This document shows positions 1 through 17,777 of a DNA stretch of 20,515 bases, in pieces. Below the pieces are notes generated by a model, which was given only the letters and a program-made list of their open reading frames with translations, searched no databases and was not told the origin of the DNA. This DNA comes from an uncultured bacterium (GTDB lineage: Bacteria > Chloroflexota > UBA5177 > JANWHV01): positions 1 through 20,515 of the forward strand of contig CAVSOU010000003.1 in assembly GCA_963729625.1 (NCBI GenBank). The letters run 5' to 3'. The number at the start of each line of letters is the position of its first letter. The first letter of the stretch is position 1. A program made the translations under genes and the position numbers.

Positions 1-2232
1 ATCGGCATATCCGTCAAGAAGGTCTCCTCCAATTCCGGCGTTGCTTTGCCGGCAGCGGCTCCGGCATTGGCGCCAAAACAGCTGGTGACTCACCTTGGTG
101 GCTAACGGCAGTAGCCGTGCCCGGCCAACCGGATGCCGTAACCAGTCGCGGAGCGGACTCAGCATATCCAGCCTACCCGGCAGTGGATGCGTGGACTCCA
201 CGCGCAATGACACCTGAAGGCGAATATCGCGCGAGGACGCGCCGACCAGGATGTCGAACATCTCGCTGGTGATGGTCCACGCCCCGGCCAGCGGATCGTA
301 GACGGCGAAATCCCGCCACTCCAGCTGGAACGACACCGCTGCTTCCACTCCCGGCTCCAGGGCAACCTTGGCGAATGCTCGCGATCTCGGTCGGGCGGCA
401 GGCGGGGGTGCTGCTCGTGCACATAGAGAGGGCCACTTCGCTGTCAGCGCGCCGACCCGTGTTGCGTATGCGCACCGACACCTGATTCGGTTCGTCGTCG
501 CTCATGACTGGCTTGTCGAGCGTGAGCTCCTCGTAGCTGAACGTCGTGTATGAGAGGCCGTGGCCAAACGAGAACAGCGGAGCCACGTGACGGGCATCGT
601 ACCAGCGGTAGCCAGTCAACAAGCCTTCTCCAAAGACGACGCTTCGGCTGCCGTCATGCGGAAAGCTCAGCAAGGCCGGAGTGTCCTCGATCCGTATAGG
701 GAACGTTTCCGCAAGCTTGCCGGAAGGATTGACATGGCCGATCAGCACTGCCGCGACGCCGGCGCCGCCAGCCTGGCCACCCAGGTATGCCTCGAGAATG
801 GCAGGAACGCGCGCCGCCCAGGGGAGGGCTACCGGCGCTCCGTTGGTCAGCACCACCACGGTACGCGGTTGCACGGCGCGCACTGCTTCCACGAGCGCGT
901 CGTGTGCCGGCGGCAGACGCAAGTCAGCGCGGTCTGCGCCCTCTAGCTCGTAGGATGGAGGCAACCAGACCATCACGACTGCCACGCGCGCGTGTGCCGC
1001 CGCGGCTCGGGCTTCGTCCAGCAGGGCCGCGTTGGAGGTCTCCCCGGTCTCGTCGTATCCTGCGGCGTATGTAACATGTCCCGAGGAGCCGATCAGCGCG
1101 ATAAGCTGTTCATGCACGGTGTCCACGGCGCGTGAAGGCACCACTTGCGAACTGCCCGCGCCCTGGTAGCGCGGCACCCGCGCAAAGGCGCCAATCAGCG
1201 CGACCTCGGCCAATGACTCACCTGCCAGCGGCAACAGATTCCCCTCGTTCTTCAGCAGCACAACGCTCGCCGCGGCCGCGCGGCGTGCCAGGGCGTGATG
1301 GGCAGCCATGTCGACCCTGATGCCGGGTCGGCGGGCAGCGTCTGCCCTGAGAATCATTCTGAGCAACGCACGGGCGATCTGGTCGAGACGAGTTTCTGCC
1401 AGCCGACCCTCGCGAACGGCCTGGACCACCGCCCCGACAGTTGGGCTGCCGGGCATTTGCAGGTGCATTCCCGCGTCCACCGCAGTCGCGCGGTTATTGA
1501 CGGCATACCAGTCGGATACAATGCAGCCGCGATAGCCCCAGTCCTGCTCGACGATCTCATGCAGCAGATGCGGATTCTCCGTGCAGTAGGCACCATTGAG
1601 TCGGTTGTACGCCGCCATCATCGTCCATGGCTGGCTTTCGGCAACGGCAATCTCGAACGGCCGCAGGTAGAGTTCGCGCAATACACGCTCCTCGACCCGC
1701 GAGTCGGTGATCATACGATTGGTCTCACACTCGTTGGCGACCAGGTGCTTGACCGAAGCGCCGACGCCATGTTCTTGCAGGCCGCCGACGAACGCCGCGG
1801 CCAACTTGCCGGTGAGCACGGGGTCCTCGGAGAAGTACTCGAAGTTGCGGCCGCACAGGGGAGAGCGCTTGAGGTTCACGCCGGGGCCGAGCACGATCTG
1901 CACGTCGTTAGCCTGAGCCTCGAGAGCAATGGCCGCGCCCACATCGTGAACAAGTGCAGTGTCCCAGGTCGCGCCCAGCGCCGACTCCGTAGGAAAGCAG
2001 GTCGCGGGGATGTTATGCCCGAGGCTCATGTCCATGCCGCCGCGTGCTTTGCGCAGTCCGGTCGGACCATCCGACAACCAGATGGAAGGGATGCCGAGCC
2101 GCTCGATAGGCTGCGTCGTCCAGACGTCGCGCCCTACGGTCAGGGACGCCTTCTCCTCCAGGGTCATCTGTACGAGCAGCGCTTCAACACGTTTGTTGAG
2201 TTCGTCCGACTAGTACTCCGTTGGTCTGCCAC
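1..2232 (-). pseudogene. GH3 beta-glucosidase with C-terminal fibronectin-III-like domain; frameshifted (pseudogene or sequencing indels); 3' end beyond the window
   Basis: ORF 173..2167 has GH3 motifs: SDGPTGLR, GPGVNLKRSPLCGRNFEYFSEDP, VKH, IVSDW (nucleophile), VLLKN, NPSGKL, GYRWYD, FGHGLSYT. The likely start is GTG at 2232 with AAGGAG upstream; one indel near 2209 joins MADQRSTS to DELNKRVEALLVQMTLEEK. The C-terminus continues in other frames: LYVHEQHPRLP (from ~427), RAFAKVALEPG...FDILVGASSRDIRL (from ~381) and FGANAGA...FLTDMP (from ~77). Confidence 0.92.
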
Positions 2233-2463
2233 GTCGTCCGCTCCTTCCCGATTCCGGTGGTCGTCACTTGTTGCTGTCACGCTCCGCAAATAGGCGTCGG
2301 CAGCAAACCTGCAACGGGCCGCGCGTAACGATGGCCGGCGTTGGCCGCTAGCGCTCAGTCTACCTCGTGGACGGCGGAGCAGATTGGCACAAGAGGTGTG
2401 GGCTCGGCCTCGAGTTGCAGCACGCTGGCTGAGCTTGTTCCTGCGGCGCGGGCAGGGGGAAAC

Positions 2464-2483
2464 GCCGCCCTTGCCGAGGCGGC
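2464..2483 (-). terminator. GC-rich hairpin, possible terminator of the minus-strand transcript from the 78-aa ORF / structured RNA
   Basis: GCCGCC(T)...(G)GGCGGC stem with a U-G pair on the minus strand, followed by GTTTCCC. The U-tract is weak. Confidence 0.35.
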
Positions 2484-2501
2484 CTTTACCGAACGGATTG
2501 G

Positions 2502-2626
2502 CATCGTAGAGCAGATCGGCCCCGAACTTCATGGCTTGGGTTGGCGTTGGACCTTTCCGGAGGGATACGCCAACAGAACCGAAAGCTCCATGGCGCGCGG
2601 GATAGGCCGACGCATCACTCACGATG
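2502..2626 (-). ncRNA. Candidate structured non-coding RNA (long imperfect hairpin), family unknown
   Basis: Nested colinear helices: 2502-2507/2621-2626, 2509-2513/2616-2620, 2516-2521/2605-2610, 2530-2534/2588-2592 and 2540-2547/2567-2574 (8 bp perfect). Several mismatches become G-U pairs only on the minus strand. No credible protein overlaps it. Confidence 0.45.
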
Positions 2627-2942
2627 AAGGGTCGTGCTTGTCCGGGCGCCTAGCCGCCGCCAGGCCAAACGTGTGGCGAGACATTCGTGGACCTGGATCT
2701 GGTCGCGCATCGCTGCGTTCTGAGCCACGGCATTGCTACGACCGGCGCCCTGGGCTTGCCGCGTGCCGCGTACAGCCGGAAGAAATCCCATCCATCGAAT
2801 TTTCTGTTCGGCACGCGAAACGGCCCCACCGCGATCCGCTGGGCACGCAGGCCAACGCCACGACTGCGAAGGCAACTCGCCCCGCGTCGACACTACCGAA
2901 CAGCCGCACGACTGCGTCGCGTGATGACGGCCTTCGATCCTC

Positions 2943-3179
2943 TCAGGCGAGTCGTGGCCGCAGGAGCGTCAGCCGGCGACGTTCATCCGGAGCGGTCCCC
3001 CGAGTCCAATCGCTTATCAGCTTTTCAAGAGCACCGGCCACCAAGGCGTAAGGCGGCCTCCGGTACTCATCGGCAATCTCCTGCAACAGAACTCGGTGGG
3101 CTGACGGTAGCGATTCGATGTAGCGGATTGTCGCTTGCCGCAGCTCCCGTTGCTCGATGGATTCATTAAATGCTGGCAA
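2943..3179 (-). CDS. Small hypothetical protein, possibly ribbon-helix-helix (CopG/Arc/MetJ-like) DNA-binding
   Basis: TTG start with GGAG 5 nt upstream and a good promoter ~60 nt upstream. LPSAHRVLLQEIADEYRRPPYALVAGALEKLI fits the helix A/helix B hydrophobic spacing of RHH proteins (judged by eye). Confidence 0.55.
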   Translation of the reverse strand: MPAFNESIEQRELRQATIRYIESLPSAHRVLLQEIADEYRRPPYALVAGALEKLISDWTRGTAPDERRRLTLLRPRLA

Positions 3180-3239
3180 GGTGTCTCCAAGGTGATCCTA
3201 TGTCCGTCCCATTCGGCCATCAGTTTCATGAACGGTGTG

Positions 3240-3269
3240 ATTCTAGCACACGAATTGCGGCTTTCGCAA
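3240..3269 (-). promoter_or_regulatory. Sigma70-type promoter with extended -10 for the 78-aa ORF
   Basis: Minus strand TTGCGA-N18-TAGAAT with TG one base upstream of the -10. Short inverted repeats overlap both boxes (TTGCG/CGCAA and GTGTG/CACAC). Confidence 0.6.
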
Positions 3270-3588
3270 GGGCATTCGGTGCGATTTGTACGATCCGAAA
3301 CGATCATGGCACAACCTTTGAGTGAGAATGACTCCGACGGATGGCGATCGCGCTGGGGCGACATACCCCAAGCTAGGCTGCTCTCAGCTATGTTAATACC
3401 AGCACGGGAATTGAGCGCCGACCCGAGCACACGGTACGTGCGAGCGCAAACGTCCGGCTGTGACAACCGACTGAGCGGGGCGCCGCACGAAGCCAGAAAC
3501 GTATTGCGCGTGGCAGGGGTGCGGCGTTGTGTTTGAGGCTGCAGGCTGGGGCTGGTTCATGCCAGCTGAATCGAAGGAGAGAGCAACT

Positions 3589-6500
3589 ATGATACGCCGT
3601 CCGGGTCGCGCTGCTCTCGCCAGCAGCGTGCTTTTGTTCCTGCTGCAAGTCCCGCCGATTCAGGATACGGCACGCGCGATCGCGGCGCAGCAGGCCATGG
3701 CCTCGTTCCTCCCTACGCTCAGCCCTGCCGTGGCTCAGGCTCTTTCGGGTCCGGCCACCGATCACGTCATCGTCACGCTGCGCGATCAGTATCCCGCCAC
3801 GAACTCCTCGTTGCGAAGCGAGCGGATTCCGGCGTCCCGGGCGGCTTTGTTGCGCGAGCTCAACGCGGTCGGGGCCAAGTCCTTGCATTCCTACAGGGTC
3901 GTTAATGCGGTAAGTGCCACGATTTCGATCGCAGAGGAGGCGCGGCTGCGCGGCGATCCGGCCGTGCTCAGCGTGGCGGCGGATCGCGTGATTCGTCTGC
4001 TTGCACCTGCGCCAATTGGGCACATCCCGGTGCCGGGTATCGGTAGCAACGACGCCTCTTCGCAGGCATCCGACCCGCTGACTCCTGCCTGCACGACGAG
4101 CAGGACGCCTTCTCTGGAGCCCGAAGCGCTTCAACTGACCGATACGGCCTTCTCCAACCCGAGCGTGGCGCAGGCGCAACGGCTCCGCTCCGGCACGGGC
4201 GCCCTGATCAACGGCCAGGGTGTGAAGGTTGCGTACATTGCCGACGGCGTCGATGTCCACAATCCGGACTTCATACGCAATGGCAAGTCGGTTTTCGTGG
4301 ACTACCAGGACTTCAGCGGGGACGGACCGAACGCGCCTACCGGAGGTGGGGAGGCATTTCTTGACGCGAGCTCCGTCGCGGCGCAGGGTCATCAGGTGTA
4401 TGACGTCAATGCGTGGCTCGTCAATAAGCTAGCCAAGCCGTGCCCGATCCGCATCCTCGGCATGGCGCCAGGCGCCGAGCTGGTCGGGCTCAAGGTGTTC
4501 GGGAGGACAGACGCGACGACCGAGTCGGCGTTCGTGCAGGCCATCGATTATGCTGTCTCCGTGGACAAAGTTGACGTACTCAATGAGTCGTTCGGGGGCA
4601 ACCCGTACCCCGATCTCGCGAATGACCCGATTAGCATGGCCAACAGCAACGCGGTGTCCGCCGGAGTGACCGTCACGGTGTCCAGCGGCGACGCGGGCGC
4701 GGCCAGCACTATTGGCTCACCGGGCACCGACCCGGGGGTGATTGCGGTGGGCGCCAGTACGCAGTTTCGTGCTTATACGGAGGCCGGAAACGACGGGATC
4801 ACCCTTGGCACCGGATACGTCGACAACAATATATCCTCGCTCAGCTCGGGCGGTTTCGCACAAACCGGACCCCGGACGGTCGACGTAGTGGCTCCGGGCG
4901 ATCTCGGTTGGGCCCTCTGTACAGCTACGCTGAAGGGGCCATCGCGCTACTCCGATTGCACCAACGCCAACCAAAAGAAGTCGTCGCCGATCCAATTGAG
5001 CGGGGGCACAAGTGAGGCGGCGCCGCTAACCGCAGGCGAGGCGGCCCTGGTCATCCAAGCGTATCGCAGCACGCATCACCACGCCTCACCCACTCCCGAT
5101 CTGGTGAAGCAAATCATCATGAGCACGGCGACAGACCTCGGCATATCCGCCACGCAGCAGGGTGCAGGGCTCATTGACAGCTACCGTGCAGTGCAAGCCG
5201 CGCTTTCGTACCGAGACTCGGTTGCAACGCCGTCGCCGCGCGCCGGGCGACTGCTGGTCAACGACACGACGGCATTTACGGCGACGGACAAGCCCAACAC
5301 GACTGAACGCCTCGCGTTCGACATTAGGAACGCGGGCAGCCAGGCGCAGCGCATCGCTCCGAAGCTGCTCGCGCTTGACAAGACGGTGTTCCGCGCGGAC
5401 TATGGTCTCCACCTCGACCCGCTTAGCGATCCGCTCACATTCGTCAATCAAGACGGCACGGATCGCGCGTTCGTTGCGCAAACGTTCAAGGTTCCGCCCG
5501 GCGTGCAGAGACTGAACGCATCCATCGCCTGGCTAGCACTGCAGGAGTCCTCGTCCGTAGTCGTTCTCAACTTGTTCGATCCCAGCGGCCGTCTGACTGC
5601 AGTGTCCGACCCACAGAACGCTGCGCCGGGGACCAGCAGTGGGTTCGGCCAGGTCGACGTGAGGACTCCCCGGGCCGGCATGTGGACCGCACTTATCTGG
5701 ACGCGAGCCAGAGCGGTCAGTACGTCGTACTACGGTGCCGTGCTGCTCTCAGTTAGTGGTTTTCGCTACGCGAGCGCCGGCACGGTGACTCCCGCCGAAG
5801 TAACGCTTCCGGCTGGCCATACCGCGACCTTCACCGCCATCACACGCTTGCCAGGCTCTCCCGGCGACCGCGTCGAAGAGATCGTCTTCCCGTCGCCGAG
5901 CGGATCGACGACGCTGATGGGCGCCATACCGGTGACCGAGCGCGCGCTGGTGCCGTTGACGCGCTCAGGCGGCTCATTCTCGGGCACGATTACCGGCGGG
6001 AATGGCCGCGGCGGATCGCCAGGACAGACGCTCAGCTACCAGTTCGACCTGCCGGCGGGGTTGCACAACCTCGGCCTGGGACTGCGCGTCGCCGATCCGA
6101 ACAATAATCTCGAGGCGGTTCTCGTGGATCCGACCGGACAGCCCGTGGACGTGCAGACGACGGCCGGGGCCATAGGCAATTCCGGCCTGCCAACGTACTA
6201 CACAGGGGCGATGCAATTCTACCGCCTCAACCCGATGGCGGGCCGATGGTTGTTCGTGCTGTTTGTCAACGACGCGGTGGGAGCCCTGGCCACGGCGCAG
6301 CCGTTCGAGGCGGTTATCGCCTTCACTGGCGTCCGCATGCTCACTCGCGGCATACCCGATAACGTGCACACACTGCTTCGAGCGGGAAAGGCGGTGAACG
6401 CGGCGGTTTTGGTCGAGAACACCGGGGTAACGGCGAAGGATGTGTTTCTCGACCCACGGCTGGCCGGTACGGCGCGCGTGCCGTTGCAGGCGCCCGATTC

Positions 6501-7086
6501 GTTCAGCTTGACGCTTCCGATCACAGGCAGCCAGTTGCCGGCATTCATCATCCCGCCAGAGGTGGGCAGCGTGACGTTCAACGCTCAGTCACCGACACCG
6601 ATGGCCTTTGCCGTTACGCCATTCAGCGGCACGCCGCCCTTCGGGGGTACGGGCAGCCCGGACACTTACCAATCCAGCGGCCCCAGCATCGATCGGGCCA
6701 CCGGCAATTACGTCGCGTCCCTTACCGTGCAGGCGCCGGAGTTGGCGTCCGGAGCCTGGCAAGCGGAGCCGGAGCAGGTAGGACCCTTCGGCAACGGCGG
6801 CGTAGGGCCGAGCACCTTTGACGTCTCGGCCACGGCTATAGGACAGCCGTTCGATCGCCAGGTGACTACCACAACGACGGACGACATCTGGTCGCCGTTC
6901 GCAACACGTTTCCGTACGATGGTGATTGGGCCGCTTCACGTTCGCGAGCTCGACCTGCGGATTACCCCGGCGGGGCCACCGGGCCACGTGGTGCGCGGAT
7001 ATATCTACCTGGACACGTTCAACCCTAACAGCATCAGTGGAGACGAGCTCGCGGCGATTCCATACGCCTATACGATAGGACGGTAG
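3589..7086 (+). CDS. Secreted subtilase-superfamily serine protease (S8-like architecture, S53-type Glu-Asp-Ser motifs) with I9-like propeptide and repeated C-terminal beta-domains
   Basis: ATG at 3589 with AAGGAG at 3574-3579. Signal peptide ends near TARA. Propeptide features include VIVTLRDQ and HSYRVVNAVSATIS. Catalytic-domain motifs: GQGVKVAYIADGVD, GGEAFLD, GMAPGAELVGLKVF, VDVLNESFG, SSGDAG, VIAVGAS, DVVAPG, SGGTSEAAP, QGAGLID. Confidence 0.92.
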   Translation: MIRRPGRAALASSVLLFLLQVPPIQDTARAIAAQQAMASFLPTLSPAVAQALSGPATDHVIVTLRDQYPATNSSLRSERIPASRAALLRELNAVGAKSLHSYRVVNAVSATISIAEEARLRGDPAVLSVAADRVIRLLAPAPIGHIPVPGIGSNDASSQASDPLTPACTTSRTPSLEPEALQLTDTAFSNPSVAQAQRLRSGTGALINGQGVKVAYIADGVDVHNPDFIRNGKSVFVDYQDFSGDGPNAPTGGGEAFLDASSVAAQGHQVYDVNAWLVNKLAKPCPIRILGMAPGAELVGLKVFGRTDATTESAFVQAIDYAVSVDKVDVLNESFGGNPYPDLANDPISMANSNAVSAGVTVTVSSGDAGAASTIGSPGTDPGVIAVGASTQFRAYTEAGNDGITLGTGYVDNNISSLSSGGFAQTGPRTVDVVAPGDLGWALCTATLKGPSRYSDCTNANQKKSSPIQLSGGTSEAAPLTAGEAALVIQAYRSTHHHASPTPDLVKQIIMSTATDLGISATQQGAGLIDSYRAVQAALSYRDSVATPSPRAGRLLVNDTTAFTATDKPNTTERLAFDIRNAGSQAQRIAPKLLALDKTVFRADYGLHLDPLSDPLTFVNQDGTDRAFVAQTFKVPPGVQRLNASIAWLALQESSSVVVLNLFDPSGRLTAVSDPQNAAPGTSSGFGQVDVRTPRAGMWTALIWTRARAVSTSYYGAVLLSVSGFRYASAGTVTPAEVTLPAGHTATFTAITRLPGSPGDRVEEIVFPSPSGSTTLMGAIPVTERALVPLTRSGGSFSGTITGGNGRGGSPGQTLSYQFDLPAGLHNLGLGLRVADPNNNLEAVLVDPTGQPVDVQTTAGAIGNSGLPTYYTGAMQFYRLNPMAGRWLFVLFVNDAVGALATAQPFEAVIAFTGVRMLTRGIPDNVHTLLRAGKAVNAAVLVENTGVTAKDVFLDPRLAGTARVPLQAPDSFSLTLPITGSQLPAFIIPPEVGSVTFNAQSPTPMAFAVTPFSGTPPFGGTGSPDTYQSSGPSIDRATGNYVASLTVQAPELASGAWQAEPEQVGPFGNGGVGPSTFDVSATAIGQPFDRQVTTTTTDDIWSPFATRFRTMVIGPLHVRELDLRITPAGPPGHVVRGYIYLDTFNPNSISGDELAAIPYAYTIGR

Positions 7087-7116
7087 GGCAGGGTGCTCGG
7101 CGTGGCCGTTGGGCTT

Positions 7117-7136
7117 AGCCCCGCCACGCTGGGGCT
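7117..7136 (+). terminator. Short hairpin after the protease gene
   Basis: AGCCCC-N8-GGGGCT, 30 nt after the stop. No U-tract. Confidence 0.25.
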
Positions 7137-7272
7137 CGGTCGCGATAGTTGTTCACAGCAGATGGAGCAGATGCGCTGGTTGCCGCTGCCCGCCTCAGGC
7201 TGAAGCCACCCAGCTCGCGGCAGTTAGGTGCTGTTGCGCCGCGTGGCTGACCATGACAGTTCGGAATTCGCG

Positions 7273-7300
7273 GTGTCATCAAGCGGGCCTCCTATACAAT
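7273..7300 (+). promoter_or_regulatory. Possible promoter for the P450 gene
   Basis: GTGTCA-N16-TACAAT, 60 nt upstream of the ATG at 7360. Confidence 0.3.
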
Positions 7301-7359
7301 GAGAAGCAGTGCCGCGCCCCTGCACGCGGCGGTGCTTGCCGCTTGGAGATTCGACGAAG

Positions 7360-8613
7360 ATGCCGTGCTCGCACATTTGCTCTGATCCGGACCTGGATGC
7401 GTGTCTGGTGTCGCCCGAGATCATGCTCGACCCGTACCCGATCTATCGCCGTCTGCGCGAGGAGGCGCCAATCTTCTGGAGCCAGAAGTGGAACGCCTGG
7501 GTTCTCAGCCGCTACGATGACGTGGCCGCCTCGTTACGGGACAATGAGAATCTGTCCAACGAAAACCGGCAGGCCCTGCTATTCAGCGAGTTGACTGAGA
7601 GCGAACGGCAGGACCTTGCGCCTCTGCAGCACTACTTTGCGCAGAAAGACGTGATTGGATCGGACCCGCCGGATCACACGCGAATGCGCGGGCTGGTGCA
7701 AAAAGCATTCACGCCAAAAGTGATCGCGTCGCTCGAGCCGCGGATCCGCAACCTGGCCCAAGACTTGTTGGAGCAAGCGATGCGGTCGGGGCCGAGTTTC
7801 GACTTCGTCGCACAGATCGCCCATCCAATGCCCGTCATTCTCATAGCCGAGCTTCTCGGCGCCCCGGCACAGGATCGCCCGTTGTTCAAGCGTTGGTCAG
7901 CCGACATTCTTGGGTTCCAGGGCACTGGCCGGACGACCTACACCGCGGCCGTGACGTCGCAGGCCAGCCTGCTAGCCATGTTCGCGTACATGAATCGACT
8001 GATCGATCGGCGGCGCGTCCAGCCGCAAGATGACCTGATCACTGCGCTTGCACAAGCGGAGGTCGGTGGCCAGCAGTTCACGCGCGCCGAGTTGCTGGCC
8101 ACCTGCAATACCATCCTGACGGCAGGACACGAGACGACCACAAACCTTCTTGGTAATCTCTTTCACCTGCTGATGGCACATTCGGCGCAGTGGGAGCACC
8201 TGCGTGCCGATCGCAGCCTCCTGCCCGGCGCAATCGAAGAAGCATTGCGTTTTGACGCGCCAAAGCAGCGGAACTTTCGCAGAGTGCGCCAGACACACGT
8301 CGTGGATGGAGTTACCTTCAGCGAGAACGAGATGGTGTTCCAATTGATCGGCGCCGCGAATCGCGATCCGCTGCAGTTCGCCCACGCCGATACGTTTGAT
8401 ATTACTCGCGGCCGGCAAAACAGCCATCTCTCATTCGGTGCAGGGATTCACTTCTGCTTGGGAGCACCCCTAGCGCGAACCGAAGCAACGGCGGTGCTTG
8501 AGGCCGTCCTCGAGCGCGTGCCCAGGGCCCGGCTGGGGCCCGGGTCGGTGCGCTGGCAGGCGCGCGTACAATTCCGGGGACCGGCGGAACTGTGGCTTGC
8601 GACCGGCGCGTGA
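7360..8613 (+). CDS. Cytochrome P450
   Basis: DPYPIYRRLREEAP, DPPDHTRMRGLVQKAFTP, I-helix AGHETT, ExxR (EEALR), AANRDP and heme motif HLSFGAGIHFCLG. Start placed at ATG 7360 (GGAG at 7345-7348). Confidence 0.97.
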   Translation: MPCSHICSDPDLDACLVSPEIMLDPYPIYRRLREEAPIFWSQKWNAWVLSRYDDVAASLRDNENLSNENRQALLFSELTESERQDLAPLQHYFAQKDVIGSDPPDHTRMRGLVQKAFTPKVIASLEPRIRNLAQDLLEQAMRSGPSFDFVAQIAHPMPVILIAELLGAPAQDRPLFKRWSADILGFQGTGRTTYTAAVTSQASLLAMFAYMNRLIDRRRVQPQDDLITALAQAEVGGQQFTRAELLATCNTILTAGHETTTNLLGNLFHLLMAHSAQWEHLRADRSLLPGAIEEALRFDAPKQRNFRRVRQTHVVDGVTFSENEMVFQLIGAANRDPLQFAHADTFDITRGRQNSHLSFGAGIHFCLGAPLARTEATAVLEAVLERVPRARLGPGSVRWQARVQFRGPAELWLATGA

Positions 8614-8756
8614 CCTGCGCAACTGGAGACCACGGCGGCCAGGTTGAAACCGCTGCCATGTTTCACAGTGGAACTCGGCGATGCAGACACGCCGGCGCGT
8701 AAGCCGGTACAGAGAAGACGGTGGTCTGCAAGGCCAGGAGCCAGGAGGGACTGGCG

Positions 8757-9341
8757 TTATTCCGGCGGCGCCAGCGGCACGTCAGTGCGACGGTACAGAG
8801 TCGCCACGGCAAGGCGCACGCCGAGACTCTCTAACTCCAGCTCGTGTTCCGGGCCGTAGAAACGGAATAGGCCCCAGCCGCTGGCCGTACGGCGGTATAC
8901 CTCGACGCGCTGATATCTCGTGCCTACGAGAACATACTCCTGCAGCGACGGGCACGTTCGATAGTCATCCCACTTACGACCGCGGTCCTTGTACTCCGTG
9001 CTGTCTGAGAGAACCTCGAAGACCACGCCGGGCTCAACGACTTCCATGTCGTGCCTGGTAGCCTGATCGCGTGCCGAACAAGTCACTACAACGTCGGCAT
9101 AGGTGTAGCGGCTTTCCGAGACACGCGTGGCGAGATCGGAACCATAGGCAATGCATGGTCCGTCGCCGAAGGCAGCGTTTAGCGTGCCGATGACATTGGC
9201 GGCTATGAGCGAGTGCGCCCGCGATCCTCCGGCCATGGCATAGATGCAGCCGTCGACGTACTCATGCTTCACGTCGCTTGCGCGCTCCAAGTCGCGCCAC
9301 TCCTGGACTGATATCCGCTTTGGTTTGTGGCTGGCAATCAT
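8757..9341 (-). CDS. Uma2 / DUF820 family PD-(D/E)xK-type putative endonuclease
   Basis: KHEYVDGCIYAMAGGSRAHSLIA, YTYADVVVTC, VVFEVLSDSTEYKDRGRKW, PSLQEYVLV. ATG at 9341 with GAGGAGG at 9349-9355 and a TACGAT -10-like box at 9363-9368. Confidence 0.93.
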   Translation of the reverse strand: MIASHKPKRISVQEWRDLERASDVKHEYVDGCIYAMAGGSRAHSLIAANVIGTLNAAFGDGPCIAYGSDLATRVSESRYTYADVVVTCSARDQATRHDMEVVEPGVVFEVLSDSTEYKDRGRKWDDYRTCPSLQEYVLVGTRYQRVEVYRRTASGWGLFRFYGPEHELELESLGVRLAVATLYRRTDVPLAPPE

Positions 9342-9451
9342 GGCGCGGCCTCCTCGTCCTCTATCGTACCGCGTTGCGGACATGCATCATGTGTCGGCGA
9401 GCATAGAGCTCTCGTCGTCAACGAAGCCGGTCGGCATAAGGAGCTCGTAGC

Positions 9452-9643
9452 ATGATCGAGCTGATGGGCAACATTGTGTTTACCAACGGCGCTCTGGCGG
9501 AGCCGGACGGCACACTCAAGCTCTACTATGGAGGCGCCGACACCTGCATGAATGTCGCCACCGCGAGGATCGACGATCTGATCGATCTGGCTCTGGACGA
9601 CGGCCCGGATGCCACAGTAAGGTACACGGGAGCAGTTGAGTAG
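9452..9643 (+). pseudogene. C-terminal fragment of a GH130 (mannoside phosphorylase/glycosidase) protein
   Basis: GNIVFTNGALAEPDGTLKLYYGGADTCMNVA matches the GH130 C-terminal NVVF..G....DG.L.IYYGAADT signature. Only 63 aa, against about 300 aa or more for the family. Confidence 0.75.
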
Positions 9644-9701
9644 TTACCCGGCGCTCGACCGGGCATGACGTTCGCATGCGATTATATCGGCGGAGAAGCG
9701 T

Positions 9702-10797
9702 ATGAATCACCTGCGGGTCGGCATCATCGGCACGGGCCGGAAGAAAGCACGACCGGACATCGAGGGCTACTTCATGGCCTATGCGCACGGGCGCGGCTAC
9801 CAGGCGCTGGCTGACCGCTGCGAACTGGTTGCCTGTGCAGACATCGTGCCCGAGCACGCCCAGGCATTCGCGGCGGCCTTTGGCATCAAAGCGGATGGCG
9901 TGTACACCGATCACCGCGCTATGCTGCGTCAGGCCAAGCTGGACATGGTGAGCATCTGCACGTGGCCGCATCTGCATGCAGCGATGGCCGTGGACTGTGC
10001 GCTGGCAGGCGCGCGGGCGGTGCACTGCGAGAAGCCGATGGCGACGACCTGGGGCGCGGCGCGACTGATGGCACAGGAGTGCGCGCGCCGCGACGCGCAG
10101 CTGACCTTCAACCATATGCGGCGCTTCGGCAAGCCGTTCACCATGGCACGCGACCTGCTCGGCGGCGGCGCGATCGGCGATCTGGAGCGTATCGAGCTGG
10201 GATTTCCAGGCGACGTGTACGACATTGGCTCGCACTGGATCGACCTGTGCGGCATGTTTGTGGGCGAGCAGCCGGCGGAATGGGTGATCGGGCAGGTCGA
10301 CTACCGGTTCGAGCGGCGCGTCTTCGGCGTGCCCTCCGAGGGCCAGGTGCTGGCGCACTGGCAGTACCCGAGCGGCATTACAGCCACGCTGCTGTCCGGC
10401 TTTGGTCACGACACGACGCGGTTCTGGCACCGGTTGGTGGGGACGGCCGGCACCGTCGAGATCGGCGTGCCCGACGAGCACAGCCTGCGGATCCGGCGTG
10501 ACGGCGATGCCTGGGAGACGCTCGATACACAGGGCGAGACGGTGCACGGCACGAGCGATGCCAACGGCACCGGCTATCATGAGCGGGCGGTTGCCGATGC
10601 AGTCGGCGCGCTGCTCGCGGGCCGCGAGCCCGAGCTGAGCGCGCGCGCGCGCGCTCAATGCTACCGAAATCGTTTTTGCGATTTACGAGAGCAGCCGACG
10701 GCGCGGCCGCGTGGATCTGCCGCTGACCATCGAGGACCACCCGCTGGTAAGCATGGTCGAGAACGGCGATCTCAGCCCGGTGACGAACAGCGCGTGA
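9702..10797 (+). CDS. Gfo/Idh/MocA family NAD(P)-dependent oxidoreductase, frameshifted near the C-terminus
   Basis: LRVGIIGTG, LVACADI, LDMVSICTWPHLH, CEKPMA, DIGSHWID. After the (GC)8 run, the family-like tail ALNATEIVFAIYESSRRRGRVDLPLTIEDHPL...* lies in the +1 frame (TGA at 10795-10797). Confidence 0.88.
10639..10654. repeat. (GC)8 dinucleotide run at the oxidoreductase frameshift
   Basis: gcgcgcgcgcgcgcgc read directly from the sequence. Confidence 0.9.
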
Positions 10798-16398: not shown

Positions 16399-16476
16399 TA
16401 TGTGGCCACTGGCCGCCAGATGGTGCTCCACGTGGGAACCGATGAAAGCCGATTCGCCGGTCACCAAGACCCGCAT
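16399..16476 (-). pseudogene. N-terminal stub of an NAD-dependent epimerase/dehydratase
   Basis: MRVLVTGESAFIGSHVEHHLAASGH is a degenerate MRVLVTGGAGFIGSH...L...GH Rossmann start, with a GGAAGG RBS. Similarity is lost after ~26 codons. Confidence 0.7.
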
Positions 16477-17495
16477 TTGCCTTCCTGCCCGTCGTTCCTA
16501 TGGTCCCCATCCAGCATGTCGCCAGTCCTGCGGCCAGGCGCTGGCACCTGCATGCCTTCCGTCATCTGCCCGAGCCCCAGAAGCTCGGGGTCGTGATCCG
16601 GTGACATGCAGTCCCGGTGACGCGCGCCATCGGATTCGGTCAGCTTGTACCAGGGCAATCGCTCGAGAGGAGCGTCGATCGCGACCTCGTTGGGACCCAC
16701 CAAGACGGAGCCATCGTCGCCCTCCCACATGCCGGCCGGGACCCTGATAGTACGTGTGACCGCTCCCTTCGTGAGCACCGGGGCTACAAGATAGCGGTCG
16801 CCAAGCATGTGCTGGTCGAGCACTGTTTCCATTCCGGCGTCAGGGAAGACGTAGGCCATGTGGCGAATAATCGGTTCTCCTGTCATGGCGGCATGCCGTG
16901 CCAAAGCGAGGATCGTGGGTCCCAGGCGGATTCTCAGCCTCACCATGATCATGCACAGCGCAAGGTGCTTCGCATCGAGCACGCGCACGGGAAGCAGCGA
17001 ATACTGGATGATGGGAAAGAACGTAGCCGCTTGCGCCCAGCGCACGAACAACTCCTGGTCGATCAGGCCCATCTCCGTCTCTTCGCCGCCGCCCACCATG
17101 TCCGGGCACGTATACGGATAGCCAACCAGACCCTGGGCCAACGCCGTCGGTACGACATCGGCAAGCCCGCCGCCGCCCCACTTGTGCCCTTCGTCACGCG
17201 CACGCTGGAGCAGATGCTGGCCGCCCAGCTTCCAGCACGCTCGATACTCTGCGATCGAGTACTTGAGCCCGACTCGCGCAAAGTCATCGCAATGTCCAAC
17301 GGGCGTGCGGGCGCAGTACGATCGATCGGTTGCCAAATAGCGGAAGGGATCGCCGCCGTCGAACTTGAAGCCGTCGATACCGTAGTCGTCGACCAGGCGA
17401 TCGAGCTCTCCTTGAAGCCAGGCCAAGGCCCCGGGATGCGGCGGGTGAGCAGCCTGACGGCGAAACGGTGCTTTTCCCCGGACTCCCCTGGGCAA
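16461..17495 (-). pseudogene. N-terminally truncated GH31 (MYORG/NET37-like) alpha-glycosidase
   Basis: YGIDGFKFDGGD (nucleophile), CPDMVGGG, DQELFVRWAQ, GEPIIRHM, MLGDRYLVAPVL, APLERLPWY. Family similarity begins at about 17445 and ends at about 16640, so the N-terminal part is absent or degenerate and the C-terminal ~60 aa look like read-through. Confidence 0.8.
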
Positions 17496-17777
17496 TCGAT
17501 ACCGATCGTCAGTGAGCTCAAATGGCTAAGAGCTCTTGGCGGGGTGCAGCCGGCACTGACTGCACATAGTCGATAGATCTGAGCGCTCCACCCCCAACCA
17601 TCCCCAGGCGCAGCATACCGGGCACCCTGACCAGCCACGGCGGAGATCTCGTTGTGCGCACAGGAGGCGCATCTGGTCGTTGTCGGCGATCACCACGGCC
17701 AGGGACGCTCTATGTCGGACACGTGCCGATCTCCGGCCTCTCCGCCAGCGCACCCCCAACTGCATGAAGCTAAGCGA

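Follow-up and report, generated by a model that had tools for sequence, protein, structure and literature searches.

A short open reading frame (ORF) of 78 codons (2943..3179, minus strand) is followed on its own strand, in the window analyzed here (the whole stretch of 20,515 nt), by a long G+C-rich stretch and then by a GH3 gene (2167-173). The question raised by this arrangement is whether the ORF and the sequence downstream of it constitute one functional unit, in which a small protein is made together with a large structured RNA, as an initial annotation proposed, or whether they are merely neighbors. The reading that we regard as probable, and with good confidence, is that the locus consists of a stand-alone small regulator-like gene and an unconstrained spacer, and not of a protein-plus-ncRNA module.

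The small gene, its promoter and its family

Judged by comparison of sequences, the small ORF is, as originally claimed, a real gene, because a homologue (E 4.8e-18) in genome G002, another species of the same genus, is likewise 78 residues long, TTG-started and preceded by a ribosome-binding site (AGGAG), and because the differences between the two fall 15/15/38 on the first, second and third codon positions (61 codons), a third-position excess. In the window, GGAG (3188-3185) stands 5 nt before the TTG start, and an in-frame TAG lies upstream at 3200-3198. (A stable structure inside the coding sequence, at 3001-3125 with z -2.45, was set aside because the G002 orthologue, at z -0.13, does not share it.)

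Upstream on the same strand lies a promoter-like site of the sigma-70 type with an extended -10 element (3240..3269), comprising a -35 sequence TTGCGA (3269-3264), an 18-nt spacer and TG-c-TAGAAT (3248-3240). No other such site is returned for 2100-3600 by the consensus scan, which is blind to non-sigma-70 promoters and U-less terminators; shuffled sequences lead one to expect 0.2 +/- 0.5. The block TGTGCTA-A-TCAC..CGTTC is common to the window and to the region upstream of the G002 homologue, and this extended -10 block is the best-kept non-coding stretch upstream of the gene in that comparison. The promoter proposed in the initial annotation stands on these two grounds. It would drive a leader of ~54 nt (3180..3239, its start being placed from sequence) and the TTG-started ORF behind it.

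The short inverted repeats that were said to overlap this promoter stand only in part: arms GTGTG (3251-3247) and CACAC (3239-3235) do flank the -10 hexamer and can be thought of as a candidate operator, but at 5 nt each they are of chance-level length. They are also below the 6-nt seed of a repeat scan that returned no arm pair at the -10 hexamer (and, in this region, only the palindrome TTCATGAA at 3232-3225); in G002 the arms are reduced to GTG/CAC (3 nt). The 78-residue protein would act as a small regulator that binds DNA as a dimer, perhaps repressing the promoter of its own gene.

The family to which this protein belongs is very rare, with roughly twelve clusters recovered from billions of proteins. 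Its profile matches all four of the other genomes of the genus; of 1.84 billion representatives, 8 match it at E<=1e-3, including a repeat protein that is a spurious match; of 5.77 billion proteins, 9 match at E<=0.01; and a scan of metagenome contigs finds no relative. Within the sampled phylum the family is essentially restricted to the source genus. Weak single-genome tblastn matches (E 0.002-0.009) were left out, with the exception of the G281 ORF, which Pfam places in RHH_1. The lone contig match to a single protein (locus L016) was rejected as spurious, since it lies inside a 202-residue open frame of high GC3, which we take, reading it by eye, to be an ATP-synthase delta-subunit gene. 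A search of sequencing runs listed three, all DNA and none RNA, from one study, with word shares of 0.25, 0.08 and 0.00.

The stretch between the small gene and GH3

The 775 nt that separate the stop codon of the small gene from the start of GH3 (2167) would be an unconstrained spacer left by gene rearrangement, containing an imperfect palindrome and, on the opposite strand, what remains of the 3' end of an HTH-AAA-TPR regulator gene. The relic (2425..2565, plus strand) represents the 3'-most ~45 codons of a paralogue of the HTH-AAA_16-TPR regulator type: it resembles the C-terminal end of the protein encoded at G000:C11:682274-684832 (49% identity over 67 residues, E 7e-8; 56% identity, E 2.7e-9, in a further comparison), in which Pfam recognizes AAA_16 and TPR_12, and the same peptide is found within open frames of 1179 residues in G002 and 1201 residues in G004. 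Two longer ORFs of the spacer were rejected. The minus-strand frame of 152 codons (2164-2622) ends in a stop that shares ATGA with the GH3 start, and a 1-nt indel near 2208 abolishes the frame in both other copies of the locus; the plus-strand frame of 236 codons (2341-3051) shrinks to 104 in both, and only its residues 29-73, which are the relic, are protein-like.

Conservation was judged from three near-identical copies of the locus (the window, G000:C2 and G001:C2; the latter two are referred to below as the C2 and G001 copies) and one divergent homologue locus, that of G002. The three copies differ most in 2568..2867, where they carry indels of 1, 3 and 6 nt and where identity per 100 nt is 84-97% (falling to 75% when 2768-2867 is compared with the G001 copy), as would befit an unconstrained spacer; the adjoining 2868-3367 is 100% identical. 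The indels may in part be assembly errors, since the GH3 gene is frame-broken in the window and intact in the C2 copy. When the window is aligned with the G002 locus by blastn, the coding sequence alone aligns, every other match having E >= 0.5.

The first alternative to be weighed takes the spacer for a long unstructured 3' untranslated region or read-through leader, the small gene and GH3 forming one operon under the small gene's promoter. The two genes are on the same strand, an arrangement common to the C2 and G001 copies; the small gene's promoter-like site is the only one in 2100-3600, and the terminator scan of that interval returns no minus-strand site. On the other side of the balance are the 775-nt gap, the blindness of the scan already mentioned, and the failure of the two genes to stay together elsewhere: in G002 an ORF that, from its translation, we take to be prolyl-tRNA-synthetase-like comes ~270 nt after the homologous gene, and in G003 and G004 a TPR protein lies downstream of the homologue. 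(That TPR protein was considered as kin of the HTH-AAA-TPR paralogue and found to be unrelated, best E 0.30.) We consider such an operon improbable, if the least improbable of the alternatives to a stand-alone gene beside an unconstrained spacer.

Folding of the downstream stretch

The large structured ncRNAs of bacteria that have come from comparative genomics, such as OLE, GOLLD, HEARO and ROOL, are defined by conservation and covariation. The stretch 2455-2945 is like them in being several hundred nucleotides long, intergenic, G+C-rich and free of ORFs; it differs in having no conservation, no covariation, no excess folding energy and no Rfam match. It had been claimed to be a ~490-nt structured, unclassified RNA of the minus strand, co-transcribed with the small protein and ending at a hairpin at 2464-2483. 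That claim we now consider very improbable, although several of the claimed stems exist, two of them beat shuffled sequence at the coordinates set by the earlier reader, and no terminator-like site intervenes between the ORF and 2455-2945.

Folding energy was compared with that of dinucleotide shuffles. On the minus strand 2455-2945 folds at -213.1 kcal/mol, against -212.98 +/- 6.8 for the shuffles (z -0.02; 42 of 100 shuffles at least as stable), and on the plus strand at -199.6 kcal/mol against -199.67 +/- 6.27 (z +0.01; 55 of 100), so that on neither strand is the folding better than that of the controls. The folding advantage of the minus strand, which had been put down to G-U wobbles, is fully reproduced by the shuffles, and base composition is thus its source. 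When 125-nt windows were scanned without preset ends, none of the 14 inside 2455-2945 reached z <= -2, as compared with 8 of 278 over the entire contig. Rfam covariance models, to which the initial annotation had looked for a check, give no match at gathering score in the whole window and none even at E<=5 over 2100-3600.

The individual elements divide. The 10-bp helix 2894-2903/2804-2813 pairs as described (nine Watson-Crick pairs and one G-U), and the 125-nt rod (2502-2626), the hairpin at 2701-2744 and the 7-bp hairpin at 2464-2483 also fold as described; the bases given for the 6-bp helix 2933-2938/2793-2798 do not pair in that register, and form 5 bp when shifted by one base. Among these sub-elements only the rod and the 44-nt hairpin at 2701-2744 stand out against shuffles, in both cases at coordinates set by the earlier reader. 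The rod is an imperfect palindrome whose stability is the same on the two strands (z -2.65 on the minus strand and -2.56 on the plus strand, matched by 1 and 2 of 200 shuffles, with ends that the earlier reader had chosen). Its minus-strand energy, -49.3 kcal/mol in the window, weakens to -37.5 kcal/mol in the C2 copy, a value at the shuffle mean. Its plus-strand energy is held across the three copies (-47.9, -46.3 and -50.2 kcal/mol). The 44-nt hairpin (z -2.47, minus strand) goes from -19.5 kcal/mol to -13.4 and -9.7 in the two other copies. The G+C hairpin that was to end the RNA is not terminator-like: it has no U-run, the stem being followed by GUUUCCCCC, and the segment 2455-2500 that contains it has z -1.60 on the minus strand and -0.51 on the plus strand. 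The many "helices" of the spacer are a chance product of a sequence with 64-68% G+C.

The comparison of copies points the same way. Of the 171 minimum-free-energy pairs, 49 vary among the three copies. The C2 copy breaks 13 of them and the G001 copy 27, leaving 158/171 and 144/171, against 171/171 in the window itself. One pair is changed on both sides, as against 0.7 +/- 0.7 in shuffles, and the covariation score is 0.049 as against 0.051, these being tests of little power with only three near-copies and one divergent locus to draw on. The substitutions break pairs and do not compensate; the 10-bp helix, for example, has lost its 3' arm in G001 through a 6-nt deletion and substitutions, its 5' arm being unaltered. 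The proposed RNA coincides with the least conserved stretch among the copies, indels included, and no similarity to it is found downstream of the G002 homologue, so that conserved structure beside the protein homologues, for which the initial annotation had also called, is absent at that locus.

Three outcomes had been named in advance as speaking against the RNA, namely folding no better than shuffled controls, no conserved structure beside the homologues, and a region that is a decayed coding sequence. The first two are what was found outright and the third is found in part: 2425-2565 is indeed a coding-sequence fragment on the plus strand, opposite to the proposed RNA, whose 3' third is antisense to it, but it covers only part of the region. 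What this removes is a false lead, the supposed new class of large ncRNA being best regarded as G+C-rich spacer with gene debris.

The fold of the 78-residue protein

What remains, beside the spacer, is a small and rare family without a name, found in one genus of the phylum sample and with a core like that of ribbon-helix-helix (RHH) proteins. AlphaFold predicts three helices both for the window protein (pLDDT 80.6) and for P0008, a 57-residue member of the family (pLDDT 94.9). Among 48,161 chains, the best match to the first model is the RHH domain of PutA (Z 5.3, rmsd 1.2 A, 44/44 residues), which is the best match to the second as well (Z 6.1, rmsd 1.4 A, 44/44). We take the top 18 rows of both lists to be RHH-type regulators or antitoxins, except for StnY and TTHA0139, which we have left unplaced in the first list; weak Foldseek rows are of the same RHH kind. 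A two-helix core with RHH geometry is present, as seen in the superposition on PutA and in the predominance of RHH proteins in both lists. The models support the original suggestion that the product of the small ORF is RHH-like, a likeness that depends on modest Z, no higher than 6.1, for a model that is small and helical.

Sequence profiles are less generous. None of 9 family members matches any RHH family even at E<=10, a PDB profile search yields no match at E<=10, and sequence searches of Pfam, NCBIfam, PHROG and PDB do not support an RHH assignment (NCBIfam and PHROGs returning single weak, unrelated matches only). When the family profile is aligned by hhalign with the Pfam-confirmed RHH_1 protein of G281, P is 1.4e-4 and the probability 53% over 43 columns, in a single pairwise comparison whose partner was chosen after the fact from a weak match.

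Set beside the RHH class (CopG/Arc/MetJ; Pfam RHH_1, PF01402), the family is alike in size, in the length and packing of the C-terminal helix pair, in a Leu-Pro junction before the first of these two helices (in the hhalign register) and in having a small gene that stands alone under a promoter of its own. It differs in the want of a profile match just described, in ~16 extra conserved N-terminal residues, and in having a modeled helix at the place of the ribbon. Helices 2 and 3 of the model superpose on the RHH helix pair, and the N-terminal element occupies the place of the RHH ribbon, which in RHH dimers is built from the paired N-terminal beta-strands of the two subunits and reads the DNA. 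In both monomer models this segment, which the ~16 conserved residues precede, is an alpha-helix with pLDDT >90, and its conserved hydrophobic positions (L13, A16, T17, Y20, I21, L24) are spaced i, i+3, i+4, which is not the alternation of a strand.

The suggestion that the protein is an RHH-type antitoxin and the downstream stretch its decayed toxin gene draws on the many RHH type II antitoxins among the nearest solved folds (ParD, TacA, KacA, MazE6/9, VapB12 and CopA_SO, Z 4-6) and on the usual order of such genes, the antitoxin preceding the toxin, but it is far-fetched, in that the minus-strand ORFs of 2455-2945 have no Pfam match, no genomic paralogue and no frame conserved in the copies, the window has neither a toxin gene nor a relic of one downstream, no homologue locus has a toxin-like neighbor, PADLOC models match none of 14 family members, and the family has no C-terminal toxin-binding extension of a recognizable family.

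A stand-alone regulator-like gene leaves room for a more specific and distinctly tentative suggestion about its product, which we think rather unlikely on the present models: the family may be a natural helix-for-ribbon derivative of RHH proteins, in which the helix pair is kept and the beta-ribbon is replaced by a conserved amphipathic alpha-helix. Switch Arc, with which such a protein would invite comparison, is reportedly an engineered double mutant with short 3-10 helices. In this variant of Arc repressor (N11L/L12N) the N-terminal beta-sheet becomes helices, and the N-terminal element of Arc is described as able to switch between strand and helix states (PMC12120924, section 2.3). What that section describes is like the family in joining an RHH scaffold to a helical N-terminal element instead of a ribbon. 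It differs from the present case, which concerns a natural family and a long alpha-helix predicted from monomer models. If the suggestion were true, the family would be a natural counterpart of engineered switch Arc, with another mode of dimerizing or of reading DNA, and it is as a possible RHH protein with its ribbon turned helix that it has modest interest. In the ESM Atlas, hypothetical proteins make up 26 of the 30 nearest clusters, and a score of 0.90 is reached by three RHH_1 clusters, which is to be read as a lead only.

The small gene and its candidate promoter

The locus is an ordinary small gene, belonging to a rare ribbon-helix-helix (RHH)-like family that has no family name, followed by an unconstrained spacer that contains a gene relic. 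The source genome is environmental (5.4 Mb, 21 contigs, G+C about 63%), and the window is one entire contig of it (C3, 20,515 nt). The region lies in a 1.36-kb intergenic gap between a GH3 glycosidase gene (minus strand, 2167-173) and a plus-strand gene for an S8 protease, whose frame is open from 3529. The remaining genes of the contig are concerned with sugar use (P450, GFO oxidoreductase, ABC sugar transporter, LacI, GH31, GDSL and alpha/beta hydrolase).

The 78-aa ORF (3179-2943, minus strand) starts with TTG, with GGAG 5 nt before it; seven codons upstream of this TTG there is a TAG in frame. Its stop is separated from GH3 by 775 nt, through which transcription might run on into GH3; a look for sequencing runs with this sequence listed no RNA run. 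That it is a real gene, as the initial annotation held, is borne out by a homologue in another species of the genus (G002) and by the pattern of codon positions. The G002 homologue is likewise 78 aa long and TTG-started, and matches residues 7-67 with 56% identity (E 4.8e-18); over the 61 aligned core codons 34 residues are identical and differences number 15/15/38 at first, second and third positions. Judged from these alignments, the ORF is conserved and under purifying selection. When 401 genomes of the phylum are searched in six frames, the protein turns up in the source genome (twice), in its congener G001 and in G002, all other matches having E of at least 0.002. The family profile finds a match in all four other genomes of the genus and, among the other 396 genomes, a single one that is weak and has an internal TGA. 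Only 8 proteins reach E<=1e-3 among 1.84 billion representatives (seven of them small, 57-114 aa, the eighth a spurious repeat protein), and a profile run against 5.77 billion clusters returns 9, none with a Pfam domain. (The clusters are singletons apart from one of 9, and their members are nameless or labelled 'hypothetical protein'; the exact window protein is absent from the protein collection searched.) Gene neighbours differ at each homologue locus examined, so the small gene stands alone. The family members in congeners G004 (L020:1465-1794) and G003 (L021:1459-1770) are longer and more divergent (about 105-110 aa; profile E 4e-10 and 1e-8, respectively), and downstream of each lies a large TPR-containing ORF on the same strand, unrelated to the paralogue of the relic considered below.

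Upstream, a consensus scan of 2100-3600 finds one promoter-like site, at 3269-3240 on the minus strand (TTGCGA, 18 nt, TG-n-TAGAAT), exactly where an extended -10 promoter had been proposed; shuffled sequence yields 0.2 +/- 0.5 such sites. The inverted repeats said to overlap it do exist, with GTGTG on one side of the -10 hexamer and CACAC on the other, but at 5 nt each these arms are shorter than the 6-nt seed of the repeat scan and went unlisted by it. In G002, AGGAG precedes the TTG start and TG-c-TACACT lies upstream; of the non-coding DNA, the block surrounding the extended -10 aligns best between the window and G002. On the other side of the gap, within 3529-3600, the protease frame (S8, plus strand) has GTG at 3529 and, ~60 nt downstream, an ATG preceded by GGAGAG and followed by a signal-peptide-like segment (MIRRPGRAALASSVLLFLL), which looks like the true start. 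If that ATG is used, ~410 nt of divergent promoter region, of lower G+C (52-55%), would lie between the protease and the small gene.

Fold of the 78-aa protein

Sequence searches of Pfam, NCBIfam, PHROGs, PADLOC and PDB give nothing meaningful. AlphaFold (9-sequence alignment) predicts helices at 3-23, 26-39 and 43-59, with mean pLDDT 80.6 and values >90 for residues 11-50; the same three helices are predicted for P0008, a 57-aa family member (14 sequences, pLDDT 94.9). Foldseek has no match at E<=1e-3, its weak top rows being PutA, CopG, AmrZ and similar. In a Foldseek-independent search of 48,161 chains, both lists are led by RHH proteins, as we take most of the matched entries to be ('ribbon-helix-helix' stands in few entry titles). 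The best matches are ORF56 (Z 5.5) and the PutA RHH (Z 5.3, rmsd 1.2 A, 44/44 residues) for the window protein, and the PutA RHH (Z 6.1, rmsd 1.4 A, 44/44) and TacA1 (Z 6.0) for P0008, modest values of a kind that, as the search tool warns, can reflect a common arrangement; it is the consistency of the lists, rather than the Z scores, that supports the RHH-like reading. The family profile was also compared by hhalign with a protein from genome G281 that is RHH_1 by Pfam (25.6 bits against a cut-off of 20.5); the alignment covers 43 columns at P 1.4e-4 and brings together the Leu-Pro junctions of both, a result to be taken as supportive and nothing further, because this partner was picked from a weak match. 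The predicted core is RHH-like in both models.

The N-terminal element, at the place of the ribbon that defines RHH proteins, is predicted as a helix in both monomer models, and the conserved positions L13, A16, T17, Y20, I21 and L24 follow helical spacing, unlike the alternation of a strand. According to section 2.3 of PMC12120924, one or two substitutions can turn the same element of Arc from sheet into helices. Our best guess is that the protein, a candidate for RHH membership in the strict sense, acts like an RHH-type small regulator, which would dimerise, bind DNA and possibly repress its own gene through the short arms around the -10 hexamer.

The spacer and the proposed RNA

The initial annotation assigned 2455-2945 to a structured RNA of ~490 nt co-transcribed with the gene. 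The folding energy of this 491-nt stretch equals that of dinucleotide shuffles on the minus strand (-213.1 against -212.98 +/- 6.8 kcal/mol; z -0.02; 42/100 shuffles as good) as well as on the plus strand (-199.6 against -199.67 +/- 6.27; z +0.01; 55/100). G-U wobbles were thought to favour the minus strand; shuffles show the same 13-kcal minus-strand advantage, which therefore reflects base composition and not selected G-U pairs. The individual helices (a 10-bp helix, a rod at 2502-2626, hairpins) fold as described, except that the supposed 6-bp helix has 5 bp and is shifted by one base. With the ends chosen in the annotation, the rod has z -2.65 (minus) and -2.56 (plus) and the 44-nt hairpin -2.47 and -1.65; the junction domain 2793-2938 (-0.38 and -0.37), 2641-2790 (-0.18 and +0.13) and the terminal hairpin region (-1.60 and -0.51) are unremarkable. 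In an unbiased scan of positions 1-8281 (125-nt windows, 60-nt step, both strands, 40 shuffles each; mean z -0.01, sd 1.04), 8 of 278 windows have z <= -2 and 5 have z <= -2.5; none of the 14 inside 2455-2945 reaches -2, the lowest being -1.94, on the plus strand. Against Rfam, the whole window has no hit at gathering score, and 2100-3600 matches no known RNA family even at E<=5. A structured RNA partner of the small gene is not supported, and the proposed ncRNA is not a real feature. (Within the CDS, 3001-3125 on the minus strand forms a stable local mRNA fold, z -2.45, 5/200 shuffles as good; conserved structure there is rejected, the G002 orthologue having z -0.13.)

Among 41 related genomes searched at the DNA level, the source included, the gap is found solely in the source genome and G001, the second source copy, on contig C2, being 98% and the G001 copy 95% identical. 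The window contig (C3:1-8656) and C2 (8006-16672) overlap at their ends with 97.6% identity and 13 gaps; the assembly has probably kept two strain variants apart as the ends of different contigs. Compared in 100-nt windows, the three copies are 100% identical over 2868-3367, and of the 4.3 kb covered 2568-2867 varies most, with indels of 1, 3 and 6 nt and identities of 84-85% for 2568-2667 and, against G001, 75% for 2768-2867. The abruptness of this mosaic over 2568-3567, the 100% block directly adjoining the 75% block, suggests a recombination boundary ~75 nt below the stop codon of the small gene.

No ORF within 2455-2945 is preserved across the copies. When the window's MFE structure is laid on the three-way alignment, 49 of 171 pairs vary, 158 being kept in the C2 copy and 144 in G001. 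There is no compensatory excess downstream of the gene, at the low statistical power of three sequences: both-sided changes number 1 against 0.7 +/- 0.7 in shuffles (280/500 do as well), with a covariation score of 0.049 (0.051 in shuffles). In G001 the 10-bp helix has an intact 5' arm and has lost its 3' arm through a 6-nt deletion and substitutions; the hairpin at 2701-2744, with -19.5 kcal/mol in the window, has only -13.4 and -9.7 in the other copies; and the minus-strand energy of the rod is down to -37.5 in C2, its plus-strand energy being retained in all three. Nothing in these comparisons points to constraint on 2455-2945, three sequences having little power.

The relic and possible frame breaks elsewhere

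Part of the proposed RNA region turns out to be decayed coding sequence. When the six frames of 2100-3560 are searched against the organism's own genome, the sole significant match outside the duplicate contig links the plus-strand frame 2425-2613 to contig C11, where a large open frame has a similar C-terminus (E 7e-8, 49% identity over 67 aa). At the DNA level ~70 nt are alignable, and similarity stops at the end of the C11 gene. The C11 protein has AAA_16 and TPR_12 domains (Pfam) and, read by eye, a putative helix-turn-helix segment upstream. The 47-aa relic peptide matches inside open frames of G002 (1179 aa, E 4e-6) and G004 (1201 aa, E 3e-5), and has no match in G003. The upstream part of such a regulator gene cannot lie in the window, because GH3 holds that DNA on the other strand. 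By this homology, a regulator paralogue has left its 3' end stranded at 2425-2565, and the proposed RNA would be antisense to it; for 2566-2942, 'spacer' is the sole explanation found.

The C11 paralogue (L024, about 3030-3040, minus strand) itself has an in-frame TAG in an apparent P-loop (...LAG*PGVGKT...), which divides the HTH-like upstream part from an 853-aa open frame; a pseudogene and a sequencing error are among the possible explanations. In the window, the GH31-like frame (16464-17525, minus strand) is only 354 aa long, spanning 130-288 of the 328 positions of the TIM-barrel profile plus the C-terminal domain, and may be truncated or frame-broken. GH3 (1-2209, minus strand) is interrupted near 350-500, its Fn3-like C-terminal domain lying in a separate frame (ORF 1-348). 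On C2 the near-identical copy is a single open frame of 802 aa (7894-10299), and the break in the window is either a real frameshift or an indel introduced by assembly.
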